A DNA stretch of 64,000 nucleotides from Alphaproteobacteria bacterium. Lineage in GTDB: Bacteria; Pseudomonadota; Alphaproteobacteria; Bin95. Shown here one piece after another: positions 7,153-12,920 of this stretch. The notes beneath the pieces are model-generated. The model was not told where the DNA came from and did no database searches. It saw only the letters and a program-made list of their open reading frames with translations. The stretch lies in the NCBI GenBank assembly GCA_964291285.2, contig OZ219786.1:736001-800000 (forward strand), given 5' to 3'. The first letter of the stretch is position 1; each line of letters begins with the position of its first letter. The position numbers and the translations under genes are program-made.

Positions 7153-8729
7153 CCGTAGAGCCCGTGGATGTACCAGCGGGGCGGACCCTTGCTGCCGGCG
7201 TCCCTGTAGAGCCCGGCGCGGTAGAGCCAGTAGCGCCGGCCTTCCACATCCTCGACGCGGTAATAATCGCGCGGGTCGTCGTCGTGGCCGCCGGCCCACC
7301 ATTCCGGCTCGATGCGCTCGGGGCCCTCGGCGCGGGCAATGCGGCGGCGCAGCCGGCGCCAGGCGAACAGCGCCGGCGGGCCGTCCGGCAGCCCGGCGAC
7401 GACCTCCACCGGCTCGGGCCGGTCGAACAGGCGGAAGGGGCGTTGCCCCACGCCCGGCCGCACGGGCCAGGCCACGCCTTCCCGGCCGGGCGCCATCCGC
7501 CGTTCGGCGCGTTCCGGCAGGTGGCTTGCGACCGGCTTGAGGCGGGAGACGGACCCTTCGCCGAGACGGGCCTGCAGGCGGTCGATCAGCGGACCGAGCC
7601 CGCCGCTGCCGCGACCGCCCTCCGTCAGCCGGAATTGCTCATGCGCGAGCGGCTCGGCGCGGACGGCGTGGAGCGCCATCGCGTCGATCCCGAACCCGGG
7701 GTCCACGGTCTCGATCTTGCCCTCGAAAAGGCGCCGCAAATGCGCGCTGTCGCGGGTGGCGCGCGCGGTCGAGACGCCGCGCCGCGCCGTGCCGCCGTCC
7801 ACCCGGCAGAACAGCAGCGCGAGTTCCCGCGCGCCGAGCCCGTCCCGTTCCAGCGAAGCGCAAAGCTCTTCCATCAGCCGGGCGACCGCCGCCTCCAGCC
7901 CGGCAAGGTCGATCAGGGGTTCCGGGAAGGCCAGGCGTGCGAGGCAGGCAGGCGGCAGCGGCAGGGACGCCGCCGGGTCGGGGCGGCGGCCGAGCGCGCG
8001 GTCGAGGCGTTCCAGAACGGCCTCGCTCCGCTCCCGGCCCTGGCCTGCCCCCGCGCACTGGCGGGGGAAGCGGCGCGCAAGCGCCGCGCGGGGCAGGGCG
8101 TCCACCGCGCCGATGGTCACCAGGCCGAGGCGGCGCAGCAGGCGGGCGTCCTCGGATACGATCCGCAGCGCCTCGACCGGCAGGGGTGCGAGTGCGGCAG
8201 GAGCACCTCCGGGCGCGGCGATGCGGCGGCCTTCCCCGCCGAAGCGGGCGAGCGCCCAGGCGGCGCCCGGCGTATCGGCAAGGCCGGTCCGCGCCCCGAA
8301 GCCAAGGCCCGCAAGGCGCGCCTCCACTTCCGCCGCCATCGCCGCCTCGCCGCCGAAGAGATGGTCGGCGCCGGCGATGTCGAGCAGCAGGCCGTCCCCG
8401 CCATCGACCGCGCAGCAGGGCGTGAAGCGGTTGCACCAGAGCGCGAGGCGTTCAAGCCCGCGCCGGTCCTCCGCCGGCCGGGCTTCGGCTGCGGCGAGGC
8501 GGGGCAGGAGCGCGCGGGCGTCGGCAAGCCGCATGCCGGGTACGAGCCCCTCGGCTTCCGCCTGCCGGTTGACCGCCGCCAGCACCGCGCCATGGCGGCC
8601 GGGCGCGGTGAGCGCGAACGGCACCGGCTCAGCCGGCGGCGCGCGCGAGGACAGGGCGGCGGGCCGCCGTGCGCGGCGCAGCCGGTCGATCGGCCAGCGC
8701 GGCAGCCACACCGAAATCACCCGTCTCAC
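7149..8729 (-). CDS. imuB: ImuB, Y-family polymerase-like protein
   Basis: SVWLPRWPIDRL, GMRLADARA, EGPERIEPEWW, RDYYRVED; lies between imuA and dnaE2. Confidence 0.93.
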   Translation of the reverse strand: MRRVISVWLPRWPIDRLRRARRPAALSSRAPPAEPVPFALTAPGRHGAVLAAVNRQAEAEGLVPGMRLADARALLPRLAAAEARPAEDRRGLERLALWCNRFTPCCAVDGGDGLLLDIAGADHLFGGEAAMAAEVEARLAGLGFGARTGLADTPGAAWALARFGGEGRRIAAPGGAPAALAPLPVEALRIVSEDARLLRRLGLVTIGAVDALPRAALARRFPRQCAGAGQGRERSEAVLERLDRALGRRPDPAASLPLPPACLARLAFPEPLIDLAGLEAAVARLMEELCASLERDGLGARELALLFCRVDGGTARRGVSTARATRDSAHLRRLFEGKIETVDPGFGIDAMALHAVRAEPLAHEQFRLTEGGRGSGGLGPLIDRLQARLGEGSVSRLKPVASHLPERAERRMAPGREGVAWPVRPGVGQRPFRLFDRPEPVEVVAGLPDGPPALFAWRRLRRRIARAEGPERIEPEWWAGGHDDDPRDYYRVEDVEGRRYWLYRAGLYRDAGSKGPPRWYIHGLYG

Positions 8730-9444
8730 GGTTCCACTCCACAGTGCAGGTCACGGGCCGTCCGCCCCGGCAGCGCAGCAGGTCGAGGCGCCAGCGCGGC
8801 AGGCCGGGCGCGGCGGCGTCGAACGGGTCGCCCCGATCCGGGGGCAGCGACGCGACCCGCCAGCGCGAGAAGGCGGCGCTCGCCGGCCCGAGGCCGTCCC
8901 GGCGCAGCAGCAGGACGGGGGTCAGGCTCTCGCGGGCGGCGAGCGCAAGCCGGCGGCTCAGGGTGAAATCGAGGCTTTCGACCTCGCCCAGCACCGCCGC
9001 CAGGGCGGCGCTGCGCAATCCCTCCTCCATCGCCCAGGCGACATCCCGGTCGCGGCGGGCGGAGAGCAGCAGCAGGTCCGCCGGTTCGAGGCCAAGGTCC
9101 CGCCAGCCCGGCCCGTAGAGCCGGCCGAAGGGGCTCGTCCGGCTCTGGCAGACCAGCACGGCGCCCCGCCCGTCCCGGCGGTCGAGCCGGGCAAGCAGGG
9201 CAGCCAGGAAAGCGGCGGCTGCCGGCCCGTCTCCTGCCGCGCTGCCGCCCGCCTCATGCAGCCCGCCCACCGCCAGCCCATGCTCCGGCAGGGCTCCGTC
9301 CAGGGCGCCGAGGCCGAACCGCCAGACCTCCGCTGCTCCGCCTCCCGCCGGCTCCGCAACGGCCGTCCGGCGTTCCAGCAGGGCGATGCGCCGCCTCAGC
9401 GCGGCGAGCCCGGCAGGATTTCTTCGGGGAAGAGGGGCCGACAT
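8629..9444 (-). CDS. imuA: ImuA, RecA-like SOS mutagenesis protein
   Basis: FGLGALDGAL..GGLHE, WAMEEGLRS, SRRLALAA, RWRV, RWRLDLLRCRGG. ATG directly follows the LexA box. Confidence 0.9.
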   Translation of the reverse strand: MSAPLPRRNPAGLAALRRRIALLERRTAVAEPAGGGAAEVWRFGLGALDGALPEHGLAVGGLHEAGGSAAGDGPAAAAFLAALLARLDRRDGRGAVLVCQSRTSPFGRLYGPGWRDLGLEPADLLLLSARRDRDVAWAMEEGLRSAALAAVLGEVESLDFTLSRRLALAARESLTPVLLLRRDGLGPASAAFSRWRVASLPPDRGDPFDAAAPGLPRWRLDLLRCRGGRPVTCTVEWNRETGDFGVAAALADRPAAPRTAARRPVLARAAG

Positions 9445-9446
9445 AT

Positions 9447-9461
9447 GTTCATTATTGGTTC
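9447..9461. promoter_or_regulatory. Alphaproteobacterial LexA (SOS) box
   Basis: GTTC-attattg-GTTC matches GTTC-N7-GTTC and lies 2 bp from the imuA ATG. Confidence 0.9.
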
Positions 9462-9479
9462 GATTGACGGGCGAGTCAA
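9451..9479 (-). promoter_or_regulatory. Sigma70-type promoter of imuA-imuB-dnaE2
   Basis: Minus strand TTGACT (9479-9474), 17-bp spacer, AATAAT (9456-9451). The -10 lies inside the LexA box. Confidence 0.7.
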
Positions 9480-9530
9480 TAAGGGGCCGAGCTGCGGTTG
9501 GGGACCGAACGGGCCGGGACCCTCTGCGGG

Positions 9531-9590
9531 ATGTCATGAAATGTCATGTTTTGTCATGAGGCCCTCCGGAAATGTCATGTTTTGTCGTGG
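9531..9590. repeat. Short TGTCATG repeat with 10-bp period in an intergenic region
   Basis: atgtcatgaa-atgtcatgtt-ttgtcatgag ... aatgtcatgt-tttgtcgtgg. Confidence 0.6.
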
Positions 9591-10044
9591 TCCGGGTCGA
9601 AGCCCGGGCCGTTGGCGCCGCTTCGAGGAGTCGTTCGTCGGGGCATTTGCGCCTCCTTCCATTCGATGGTTTCCGCCGCCCGCTGTTGCGGGGCGGCGAC
9701 CCTTTTTCGCGCGTAACGCGCGCGGGCCGGCGCGCGTCGGCGCCGGCGCGGTTCGCGCGCCTGATTGCCCGCGTGCGCCCGCATGCGCGAGGCAGTCGCC
9801 GGACGCACCCCTCCCGCCTGCTCCCCTGGGGGCTTTTTTCGCGCCGCCGCGACCCGAAGCGGCCTCCGGACAACCGCTTCCTCCCGCTCCACCTAATGGG
9901 CGGCGGCGCGGATTTCAACCCCTGTAATGGAATTTTTTCAGAAATTGTGAACAAGGCCTGCCCTTCCCGCCTCTTGACCGGCCGGCCCGTCCGGCGCAGA
10001 GAATTGCCGGCAGCACCGCCGAAGGAACCGACCCGGCCCGGCCG

Positions 10045-10575
10045 ATGACCGCTATCGACGCCATGCAGGACAGCGACTGGCCCGAGGTCCGCGCCATTTA
10101 CCGCGCGGGCCTGAAGACCGGCATCGCCGCCTTCATGAAGAACCCGCCGAGCTGGAAGGCGTGGGACAAGGGGCACCTGGCCATCGGCCGGCTGGTCGCC
10201 AGAGACGGCGGCGGCCGCGCGGTCGGCTGGGCGGCGCTGACGCCCGCCCCCGACACCTGAGGCGCTGCCGGTGTCGCTGAGGTCAGCGTCTATGTCGGCG
10301 AAAGCGCGCAAGGGTCAGGGACCGGAACCGCCTTGCTGGAGGGGCTGGTCGCGGCCTCCGAGGCGGAGGGCTACTGGACGCTGCAGGCGCAGATCATGGC
10401 GGCGAACCTGCCCAGCATCGCGCTCCACCGGAAATGCGGCTTCCGCGAGGTCGGCCGCCGGGAGCGCTACGGGCATCTGGACGGCGTCTGGCACGACGTG
10501 TTGCTGTTCGAGCGCCGCAGCGCCCGCACCGGAGGACCCGGCCTGCCGACAAGGACCTGCGACGCGGCGGGGTAG
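10045..10575 (+). CDS. GNAT N-acetyltransferase (phosphinothricin/arsinothricin ArsN1-like), candidate selenoprotein with in-frame TGA at 10258-10260
   Basis: ORFs 10045-10260 and 10333-10575 share a frame. Read-through gives ...GWAALTPAPDT-U-GAAGVAEVSVYV...QGSGTGTALL...GYWTLQAQI...SIALHRKCGFREVG...GVWHDVLLFERRS. Confidence 0.85.
10267..10299 (+). promoter_or_regulatory. SECIS-like hairpin of the GNAT gene
   Basis: GCCGGUGU/AUGUCGGC lower stem, CGCUG/CAGCG upper stem, AGGU loop 19 nt after UGA (folded by hand). Confidence 0.65.
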
Positions 10576-10643
10576 CGGCGATTGCCCCGTTGCCGCGCGC
10601 GTGTCAGGATAGCCGGCGTCCGAATGCAAGGGAGAGGACCGCC

Positions 10644-11126
10644 ATGGGCGAGAAGCTGGGGATCGGCGCCGCGTTTCCGGCCCTTTCGCTGAACCTGTTG
10701 GACCGGGGACCGGCGGAAGTGCCCGCCGACATGCCGGGCGCCTGGAAGGTGGTGCTGTTCTACCGCGGCCACTGGTGACCCTATTGCCGCCGTCAGTTGG
10801 ACGGCTTCCAGGAATTATGGCCGGAGTTCGAGGCGCGCGGCGTCTCCATCCTCGCCGGCAGCGTGGACGATGAGGATAACGCCCGCAAATTGGCGGACGG
10901 CAAGAGCTTCCCCTTCGCCTGGGGCATGACGCGGGCGGACGGAGACCGGGTCGGCGCCTGGTGGGAAGACCGCCGCAGCATCGTCCAGCCCTCCGAGTTC
11001 ATCCTGAACGAGGCCGGCGCGATCGAGGTCTCCAGCTACAGCGACGGCCCGCTCGGCCGCATCGACGCCGCCGACGCGCTGAAGCTGATCGACCTCTACG
11101 AGTCGCGGAGAAAGGCCGGGGGCTGA
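10644..11126 (+). CDS. AhpC/TSA peroxiredoxin-like redoxin, candidate selenoprotein (UxxC) with TGA at 10776-10778
   Basis: MGEKLGIGAAFPALSL...VVLFYRGHW-U-PYCRRQLDGF... The two ORFs join in frame; [10 protein letters not shown] upstream. Confidence 0.9.
10789..10805 (+). promoter_or_regulatory. SECIS-like hairpin of the redoxin gene
   Basis: GCCGUC-AGUUG-GACGGC; loop 16 nt after UGA. Confidence 0.65.
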
Positions 11127-11212
11127 GGACGACTTGCTCCGATTGCCCTGACATTCGATTGGAGTGGACCCGGCGGTCGGCGGCCCACATGGCAGGTCGG
11201 CGCGGCGCGGCT

Positions 11213-11737
11213 TTATCCTCGCCTTGCCTGCCTCCGCCGCCAGTATCGCGGGTCGAAGGCGACATCGTGGCCCCAGAGGCCGCGTCCTTCCCGGCGGGCT
11301 TCCAGTTCGACCTCCTTGTAGAGGTCTCCGTAAGCGGCGATGGCATGGCCGTTGCGGACGAGCCAGGCGCCGACATCCCTGCCGCCGCAGGTTACGCGGC
11401 CCAGCACGCGGCCATGCCGGTCTATGCCTTCCACGGACACCTCGACATGCCGGCCGCCGACCGTGCGGATGAGCGCACGCTTGACCCGTTTGCCGTGCTT
11501 GAACCAATAGCCGTCCCGGTGTTTCGCCCACTGGTCCAGTTCCGGGGCGTCGAGGCCGGAGAAGCGGACCCTGTGGCCGGAGACCCGGAGACTGTCGCCA
11601 TCTGTCACCCATGCCTTGCCGGCGATGACGCTGCCGGCTTCGGGTGCGGGCAGGCGCCGCTTGCGGCCTGGCTGCCGCCGGTGCCGCTGGCTGAGAAGCC
11701 GGAAAGCGGCACGGGCAAGGGCAGCGAGGAGTTTCAT
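11213..11737 (-). CDS. Thermonuclease (SNase-like) family protein
   Basis: VTDGDSL..VRFSGLDAPELDQ, DRHGRVLG, WLVRNGHA, EARREGRGLW. Confidence 0.88.
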   Translation of the reverse strand: MKLLAALARAAFRLLSQRHRRQPGRKRRLPAPEAGSVIAGKAWVTDGDSLRVSGHRVRFSGLDAPELDQWAKHRDGYWFKHGKRVKRALIRTVGGRHVEVSVEGIDRHGRVLGRVTCGGRDVGAWLVRNGHAIAAYGDLYKEVELEARREGRGLWGHDVAFDPRYWRRRQARRG

Positions 11738-11867
11738 AGCCCGTTCCGCTTAGCATGTTTCCCGCCCGCCGACACCCGGCCGGGGCGGCCCGGCTTGCGT
11801 GTCCGGAGGAAGCGGCTATACCTCTCGGCAGCCCGGAACGGGCGGCCCGAAGGCGGTATCGAAGGCA

Positions 11868-12916
11868 ATGACGAAAGACAGCACGGCGGCGCTGGAGGCG
11901 GCGGCCGGGGAACGCATCCTCGTTCTCGACGGCGCAATGGGGACCATGATCCAGCAGCTCGGCCTGGAGGAGGCCGACTTCCGCGGCGCGCGCTTCGCCG
12001 GCTGGGACCGGGACCTCAAGGGCAATAACGACCTGCTGAACCTGACGCAGCCGGACGCCATTGCCGACATCCACGGCACCTTCCTGGACGCCGGCGCCGA
12101 CATTCTCGAGACCAACAGCTTCAACGCCACCCGGGTCGCGCTGGCCGATTACGGCATGGAGGCGTTCGCCCGCGAGATCAACGAGGCCGCGGCCCGGATC
12201 GCCCGCAAGGCCGCGGACGGCCGCCGGGACGGCCGGCCGCGCTGGGTGGCGGGCGCCATCGGGCCGACCAACCGCACCGCCTCGATCTCTCCCGATGTCG
12301 AGGACCCGGCGGCGCGCAATGTCGATTTCGACACGCTCCGCGCCGCCTACCGCGAGGCCGCCGAGGGCCTGATGGACGGCGGGGCGGACCTGCTTGCCGT
12401 CGAGACGGTGTTCGACACGCTGAACGCCAAGGCGGCGCTCTACGCCGTCGAGGAGGCGTTCGAGGCGCGCGGCACCCGCCTGCCGGTCCTCGTCTCCGGC
12501 ACGGTTGTGGACCTCTCCGGACGCACCTTGTCCGGCCAGACGCCGGAGGCTTTCTGGTATTCGGTGCGCCATGCCGCGCCCTTCGCCGTCGGCCTCAATT
12601 GCGCGCTCGGGGCGGAGCAGATGCGCGGCTTCCTCGCCGACATGGCGCGCGTGGCCGACACGCTGATCTCCGCCTATCCGAACGCCGGCCTGCCCAACGC
12701 CTTCGGAGGCTATGACGAGACGCCGGAGACGACCGCCCGCCATCTGGGCGCCTGGGCGCGGGACGGGCTGGTGAACCTGGTCGGCGGCTGCTGCGGCACC
12801 ACGCCCGCGCATATCGCCGCCGTCGCCGAAGCCGTGGCGGGCGTGACCCCGCGCAAGCCGCCCCGGATGGAGCGGCGCATGCGGCTCGCCGGGCTCGAAC
12901 CCTTCGTCGCGGCGGC

Positions 12917-12920
<4 letters not shown>
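11868..12920 (+). CDS. metH: Methionine synthase, homocysteine-binding (S-methyltransferase) part
   Basis: [38 protein letters not shown]. Confidence 0.93.

Follow-up and report, generated by a model that had tools for sequence, protein, structure and literature searches.

The window considered here is a 64,000-nucleotide stretch of an alphaproteobacterial genome (assembly GCA_964291285.2, contig OZ219786.1, positions 736,001 to 800,000 of the forward strand), and our subject is one gene within it, at positions 10045-10575, whose reading frame is crossed by a single TGA. From comparative sequence evidence we conclude, with high confidence, that this is a real selenoprotein gene, with UGA72 read as selenocysteine (Sec); its predicted product is an acetyltransferase of the GNAT type, and we refer to it as Sec-GNAT. 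The features on which the argument leans, all on the forward strand, are as follows.

10045-10575, forward strand: the Sec-GNAT gene, 176 codons followed by a TAG stop at 10573-10575, read through at codon 72
10258-10260, forward strand: the TGA taken as Sec72 (codon 72), a single column across orthologues that is occupied by Cys in homologues
10274-10289, forward strand: invariant core of a putative bacterial selenocysteine insertion sequence (SECIS), 16 nt identical in 44/44 loci and overlapping the V-A-E-V-S-V codons
10275-10288, forward strand: apical stem-loop CGCUG/AGGU/CAGCG, with its AGGU loop at 10280-10283 and 19 nt between the TGA and the loop
10262-10307, forward strand: extended hairpin with lower stem, the minimum free-energy structure in the source genome
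10279-10281, forward strand: GAG codon of Glu79, its last two bases lying in the SECIS loop
10525-10560, forward strand: clade-specific tail, residues 161-172 (...GGPGLPTRTC), ending in Cys172 (10558-10560)

An upstream open reading frame (ORF) of 71 aa occupies 10045-10260, the same frame then remains open as far as the TAG, and the 176-aa read-through product contains the segment ...PAPDT-U-GAAGVAEVSVYV...; coordinates and translation thus agree with a preliminary description of this DNA, in which two in-frame ORFs were said to be linked by a single TGA at codon 72. Under translation table 11 the frame breaks into ORFs of 71 aa and 80 aa, which is the point in favour of the TGA being a true stop, whether the locus is a pseudogene, a gene in two pieces or the product of a sequencing error; we regard this as almost certainly wrong. 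The next in-frame start, a TTG at 10333, would lose the most conserved strand of the protein together with Glu79, and the TGA is itself kept across a broad sample of loci. A six-frame search with the read-through protein, covering 61 related genomes (source genome included), returned 20 loci with an in-frame TGA at 65-99% identity to the query, with the TGA column identical in 20/20 and set in the motif P[AV]PDT-U-GA[AP]GVAEVSVY. A second scan took one genome per species and kept the best 80 loci, of which 33 carry a TGA at the Sec72 column and 47 are TGA-less. Once 9 duplicates are removed, the two scans together contain 44 distinct TGA-bearing loci, and the gene is thus present in a minimum of 44 genomes. 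Retention on this scale disposes of the sequencing error or strain-specific nonsense mutation that the preliminary description had named as possible pitfalls. By record title or tree label, the 44 loci fall in Alphaproteobacteria (Rhodospirillaceae, Hyphomicrobiaceae, Hyphomicrobiales), Gammaproteobacteria (Granulosicoccaceae, Ca. Azotimanducaceae), SAR324 and Chloroflexota (Ca. Promineifilaceae).

Selection acts alike on the two sides of the TGA. Among 16 genus-level sequences the ratio of non-synonymous to synonymous differences (pN/pS) is 0.205 over codons 1-71 and 0.214 over codons 73-172, as against 1.04 in a control stretch of 60 non-coding nucleotides 3' of the gene; because these values are nearly equal either side of the TGA, we take both halves to be translated and under equal purifying selection, which again tells against a true stop. 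The terminal stop of the gene is itself TGA in 22/43 orthologues, and since TGA also ends this same gene, the code has not been reassigned in these organisms.

The locus or near relatives of it also occur in sequencing runs labelled sponge metagenome and marine metagenome (X5, X10-X18). Runs X2, X5, X18 and X20 were compared in detail, the others contributing small shares that are not evidence of habitat. Run X2 holds an identical sequence, but may be the source of the assembly and so is not independent. A relative's DNA contig in run X5 covers the TGA site with 64 differences over 1.3 kb, and an RNA-library contig (X18, record 1) covers 10025-10532 with 40 differences; in neither is there any change at 10258-10260 among the matches listed (132 further ones exist), so that independent material from relatives also argues against a stop created by error. 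These data are contigs, from which the start, level and strand of any RNA cannot be read, and an RNA-library contig is no proof of transcription; stretches left uncovered in X18 and X20 carry no meaning.

In bacteria the SECIS is a stem-loop that follows closely on the UGA and carries G/U in its apical loop. Folding reproduces the long hairpin (10262-10307), with its AGGU loop 19 nt past the TGA, that had been noted earlier by inspection. What carries the case is the behaviour of the codons that encode it. The 16-nt core, which spans +16 to +31 as counted from the TGA, is identical in 44/44 loci with synonymous sites included: the A, E, V and S codons of the core each use a single codon in all 44, and the first V codon is GTC in 43/44. 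The two Gly codons near the core have a third-position major-allele fraction of 0.36-0.61 over the same loci, and flanking four-fold degenerate sites vary freely; pairwise synonymous divergence (pS) is 0.046 in the core versus 0.60-0.70 in the flanks. As a control, the 47 TGA-less loci encode the same residues, G-V-A-E-V-S-V-Y, using 2-4 codons per position and with third-position major-allele fractions of 0.38-0.72. This synonymous ‘freeze’, confined as it is to TGA-bearing genes, is in our view the strongest evidence for a functional SECIS, and we suggest that recoding of UGA72 would proceed via SelB, tRNA-Sec and the hairpin embedded within the V-A-E-V-S-V codons.

The machinery that such recoding would draw upon is present: checking the source genome for it, as had been proposed, turned up selA (535 bits), selB (436 bits), selD (277 bits) and a tRNA-Sec (72.5 bits), all above their cut-offs; ARAGORN agrees on the last, calling a tRNA-SeC with anticodon TCA. 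Across the related genomes, selA is above cut-off in 20/20 of those carrying the TGA form, and the TGA form is found in 0/20 of those without a selA match; these genomes are kin, so that the co-occurrence is consistent with Sec insertion rather than independent evidence for it. The selD match (G000:C2:1357981-1358862, reverse strand, locus L010) lies inside an open frame of 747 aa, and SelD appears from this to be fused to another domain. Sub-threshold matches to the tRNA-Sec model, and two EF-Tu-like matches to the selB model, lie within a few kb of it.

Homologues point to the same residue. We searched 5.8 billion database proteins and took the 120 best homologues (55-61% identity), of which 108 have Cys at the Sec column (106/113 by pattern, 2/7 by eye); in the remaining 12 the residue is H, R, P, A, S, W or L. 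The Cys typically sits in the context PVSxR-C-VYAGVAEVSVYV, which aligns to the Sec without gaps, and in the TGA-less genome loci it is again the usual residue, with Cys in 35/47 and A, K, E, R or P in the rest. The family motif given in the preliminary description, with the TGA falling gap-free on the Cys, is therefore borne out by these 108 of 120 homologues, and its suggestion to look for Cys or TGA at the aligned column is answered by the finding of both. Source labels for these Cys-containing GNATs read ‘phosphinothricin acetyltransferase’ or ‘L-amino acid N-acyltransferase YncA’. They share with Sec-GNAT its fold and its length to about residue 160, and have Cys exactly where it has Sec, but they lack the TGA, the frozen hairpin codons and the C-terminal Cys tail of the Sec clade, and keep an invariant loop Arg and Tyr as well as an AGIFPEN stretch where the Sec clade reads AQI..AN. 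No experimental work on this Cys subfamily was found in the literature searched.

Several observations weigh against our interpretation, and we gather them here. Measured against shuffled sequences the hairpin is not unusually stable (z = -0.92, with 35/200 shuffles folding as well), and a 91-nt stretch around it gives z = +1.15; because folding energy is thus no better than chance in this GC-rich DNA, we leave it unused as evidence. RNAalifold, run on the 44 sequences, finds no covariation and recovers the invariant apical stem alone, there being no variation at all within the core and no conservation of the lower stem; in distant orthologues the lower stem pairs differently and its register is not kept. 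Some close homologues are non-Cys at the column, so that the residue is not essential for acetyl transfer family-wide. No partner gene shared across clades, and no conserved neighbour pointing to a substrate, emerged from a crude clustering of ORFs at the 44 loci, an analysis swamped by spurious overlapping ORFs in GC-rich DNA. Lastly, three database proteins have other residues at the Sec column: P0003 and P0004, which are SAR324-like and have the tail, carry W, and P0005, from a SAR324 sub-clade, carries L. Separately, a search of 9500-11500 against Rfam (E <= 1) gave two sub-threshold, unrelated matches only, and so no fitting family.

The two tryptophans are the one point in favour of UGA72 being read through by insertion of something other than Sec, for example a near-cognate Trp or Cys. 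We consider this very improbable: it would leave the frozen hairpin specific to TGA genes, and the co-occurrence of the TGA form with selA, to be explained; the homologues carry Cys and not Trp; and TGA also serves as an ordinary stop of this very gene. P0003 represents a cluster of 333 members, and SAR324-type database proteins are full-length at 173 aa, but the genomic SAR324 loci that match P0003 (L080, L087) have TGA at the column. The W of P0003 and P0004 may, then, be a TGA translated by a gene caller under a TGA=Trp code.

For the history of the family we built a tree of 74 sequences (35 Sec rows and 39 non-Sec rows) from which the Sec column and tail columns had been removed. The 35 Sec rows form a single clade (SH-like approximate likelihood ratio test, SH-aLRT, 95) that is nested among Cys forms. 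A pair of Cys forms adjoins this clade in an unresolved fork, one of them a locus in a Firmicutes metagenome-assembled genome (L082:3001-3515) whose tail reads ...GGPLLCG... and which ends in ...VGGPLLCGKERVL; on its sequence this could represent a Cys/Cys equivalent of the Sec/Cys pair discussed below, and it counts in favour of the mechanism proposed there. The source genome also holds a TGA-less paralogue at 53% identity, and at the Sec column, paralogues of that type in two genomes of the same genus (L041, L042) show T or R. Four paralogue matches at 51-52% identity were flagged with one TGA (G016:C1:2513602-2514123, G002:C539:5717-6232, G007:C3:900126-900650 and G012:C5:271072-271572); the matches reach query residue 165-172, and the TGA may in each case be the terminal stop.

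As for what the protein is, it matches Pfam Acetyltransf_1 (PF00583) at 50.7 bits, versus a cut-off of 20.7, and PF13420 at 31.6 versus 24.3. An AlphaFold2 model computed from the 74-row alignment has a mean predicted local distance difference test score (pLDDT) of 93.4 and a predicted template-modelling score (pTM) of 0.89, and Foldseek superposes it on a phosphinothricin acetyltransferase (PAT), 9igk, with a template-modelling score (TM) of 0.86 and a root-mean-square deviation of 1.8 Å; PAT-type GNATs overall score TM 0.8-0.87, and the matches also include Bar, ArsN1, PA4866 and YncA at TM about 0.8 or above. The closest solved folds are thus PAT/methionine sulfoximine acetyltransferases (PSPTO_3321, 9igk/9igl; Bar, 5t7d/e; PA4866, 2bl1/2j8m), which have the V-x-E-x-S-V-Y strand in common with Sec-GNAT, but are only 29-32% identical to it and carry Ala or Glu in place of the Sec.

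In the model Sec72 lies in the loop between strands 59-67 and 77-84, seven residues ahead of Glu79, and in the HMMER alignment to 9igk the Sec column comes directly after R-x-R and two residues before Tyr. Glu79, which we take to be the family's catalytic base, is E in 35/35 Sec-clade rows and 35/39 of the others; the Glu of the V-A-E-V-S-V-Y strand is presumably catalytic, and the Gly-rich loop presumably binds acetyl-coenzyme A (AcCoA). Conservation over the 74 rows is 90% or more at both G92 and G94, and Asn121 is invariant. On sequence and model, we would expect the product to be an AcCoA-dependent acetyltransferase with its transfer core intact.

The surroundings of the Sec, by comparison, are remodelled. 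Arg71, found in 39/39 non-Sec rows, is T, N or H in the Sec clade; Tyr74, also in 39/39 non-Sec rows, is Ala in 31/35 Sec rows; Val73 is Gly in 35/35. The Sec-clade loop therefore carries small residues (P-D-T-U-G-A-A-G) where relatives have Arg and Tyr. The clade further shows Thr29 to Ala, Gly116 to Gln and Arg150 to His, and the F-P-E of the AGIFPEN stretch is varied within it, commonly to M-A-A.

The preliminary description had called the protein an ArsN1- or PAT-like GNAT. This stands as regards the fold and a distant similarity; it does not as regards membership, for the protein lies below both NCBIfam cut-offs (ArsN1 family A, NF040503, the best curated match among hidden Markov models, 111 bits versus 170; phosphinothricin acetyltransferase, NF040502, 54.6 bits versus 300) and is without the invariant Arg and Tyr. 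According to the available text of PMC6465285, ArsN1 is a homodimer in which the partner chain extends Arg75, Ala76 and Arg77 into the site of the other subunit, where these residues bind arsinothricin or phosphinothricin; Tyr80 joins the substrate contact in one binding mode, and the pocket lining also includes Val158 of the same chain. From the motif register via 9igk, the Sec column is inferred to correspond to ArsN1 residue 78, and Val158 probably aligns to the last strand, just before the start of the tail. On this register, itself partly inferred, the Arg-x-Arg gate and Tyr of ArsN1 (Arg75, Arg77, Tyr80) have no equivalent in the Sec clade, where the corresponding residues are P/A/S, T/N/H and mostly A. 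With the Arg and Tyr that bind carboxylate and phosphinate gone, it is unlikely that phosphinothricin, arsinothricin or methionine sulfoximine is the substrate. ArsN1 of P. putida (PDB 5jtf/5wph/6m7g) has its GNAT fold in common with Sec-GNAT, 5wph being one of the Foldseek matches, and builds its substrate site from a partner loop, an arrangement that we assume by analogy for Sec-GNAT; the sequence match to 5jtf reaches only 36 bits, and ArsN1 has neither the Sec nor the tail.

This brings us to the tail. Its pattern, G-G-x-x-L-P-T-x-x-C, is matched strictly in 43/44 Sec loci, the 44th (L062) having a variant that also ends in Cys, and in 0/47 of the TGA-less loci; the distance from Sec to Cys is exactly 100 residues in 43/43. 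The AlphaFold2 model has a pLDDT of 84 over tail residues 161-170. Given the strict co-occurrence of Sec and Cys, their fixed spacing and a tail that begins immediately beyond the last strand, we tentatively favour a selenenylsulfide between Sec72 and Cys172 that would gate, or take part at, the acceptor site, although we would hold this to be short of an even chance; the pocket is favoured as its location because the partner-chain loop of ArsN1 reaches the same pocket. In such a scheme Sec72 and Cys172, possibly from different subunits, would meet at the acceptor pocket, where a reversible bond between them would open and close the pocket or join in its chemistry, whilst the acetyl-transfer machinery of Glu79 and the AcCoA loop would stay intact. 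A redox role of the kind raised in the preliminary description thus gains some support from the clade-specific C-terminal Cys. Thioredoxin reductase offers a comparison, in that its Sec too is paired with a resolving Cys, the two being joined through a flexible segment at the end of the chain; Sec-GNAT resembles it in its invariant Sec and in an invariant Cys far along the chain, on a tail rich in Gly and Pro, but differs in its acetyltransferase scaffold, which has no flavin or thioredoxin fold, and in that its Se-S bond is hypothetical.

The same pair of residues could instead act with no redox switch at all, as soft ligands that hold a metalloid or thiophilic substrate (a trivalent organoarsenical, for example) for N-acetylation. 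The placing of the Sec in the substrate loop, and the invariant pairing of Sec and Cys, would suit this, as would the loss of Arg and Tyr, which fits a changed class of substrate; the nearest curated model, at 111 bits, is the arsinothricin-resistance family ArsN1a, and arsenite methyltransferase selenoproteins appear in Table 1 of a 2026 review (PMC13188914). That score, however, is below the ArsN1a cut-off of 170, there is no ars operon or other arsenic-resistance gene within the approximately 2 kb examined on each side, and no neighbours are conserved across clades, such that we think this unlikely. The arsenite methyltransferases offer a parallel, since in the review's account they too place Sec in a small-molecule transferase without a thioredoxin fold and were likewise predicted from TGA/Cys pairs and a SECIS; they differ in having another fold and in using S-adenosylmethionine, not AcCoA, as cofactor.

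A third possibility is that Sec72 is a catalytic nucleophile, forming a Se-acetyl intermediate from AcCoA in a ping-pong reaction, with the acetyl group possibly relayed to or from Cys172. The Sec is invariant and sits at the acceptor site, seven residues before Glu79, and as a matter of general chemistry a selenolate is better than a thiolate both as nucleophile and as leaving group. PAT-type GNATs, however, are understood to use direct transfer with a Glu base, Glu79 is retained here, and the existence of homologues whose residue at this column is A, K or E indicates that no nucleophile is needed family-wide; we therefore consider this improbable.

Weighing all of this together, we judge it likely that the gene is best explained overall as a Sec-containing, PAT/ArsN1-like GNAT with a proposed pairing of Sec72 and Cys172. 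A bolder reading, speculative and in our own estimation rather unlikely to hold in all its parts, is that this would be the first selenium-dependent GNAT; that the loop Sec and the tail Cys of the partner chain would form a selenenylsulfide ‘lid’; that redox state or a thiophilic substrate would switch acetyl transfer or be chemically coupled to it; and that the clade would have arisen once, from a Cys/Cys ancestor, and be found now in several phyla. To our knowledge, such control or catalysis has not been described for any GNAT.

The genes that flank Sec-GNAT are as follows.

8629-9537, reverse strand: a 302-aa ORF with no Pfam match
10644-11126, forward strand: an AhpC/TSA-type redoxin (Pfam AhpC-TSA, 64.6 bits) with an in-frame TGA at 10776-10778, in W-U-P-Y-C
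11213-11737, reverse strand: a staphylococcal-nuclease (SNase) homologue
11799-12920, forward strand: a MetH-like gene with an N-terminal homocysteine S-methyltransferase domain

The redoxin has a hairpin of its own (6 bp, loop AGUUG) that begins 13 nt after the UGA, and it fits a family that Table 1 of PMC13188914 lists as ‘Prx-like thiol:disulfide oxidoreductase, UxxC’. Sec-GNAT and, directly downstream, the redoxin are thus neighbouring selenoprotein genes. We considered the redoxin as a conserved partner and rejected it: 10 tblastn matches reduce to 7/44 distinct loci, all of the same genus.

With regard to novelty, the preliminary description had set Sec in a transferase without a thioredoxin fold apart from the classic selenoprotein families, and term look-ups in the inventories gave nothing to the contrary: no selenoprotein described as acetyltransferase, acyltransferase, YncA, COG1247, PF00583, PF13420, PF13302 or PF13508 turned up in those look-ups of the main texts of PMC2398784 (the GOS selenoproteome paper), PMC13188914 (the 2026 review), PMC13326102 (BSepDB) or PMC12013277 (deep-Sep), although their supplements may list one. 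Full-text literature searches pairing selenoprotein or SECIS with acetyltransferase gave nothing relevant, and no model in NCBIfam release 20.0 claims the Sec-GNAT protein. There is no full-length relative above 61% identity among the 5.8 billion database proteins, and for this reason gene callers appear to split or truncate Sec-GNAT. Sec insertion is itself standard and the GNAT fold is known; it is the combination of Sec, tail Cys and remodelled pocket that is a distinct clade, one that we did not find described in those parts of the literature that the searches covered.

Most prokaryotic selenoproteins, according to the available text of the 2026 review (PMC13188914), have a thioredoxin fold or are otherwise redox enzymes. 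A well-supported Sec in an AcCoA-dependent GNAT would broaden the chemistry that employs selenium, and it draws attention to the conserved Cys of a very large ‘PAT/YncA-like’ subfamily as a residue that matters for function. The pairing with a tail Cys and the remodelled pocket provide a concrete hypothesis that is open to mutagenesis, and a family model for Sec-GNAT would repair annotation in many marine and sponge-associated genomes.

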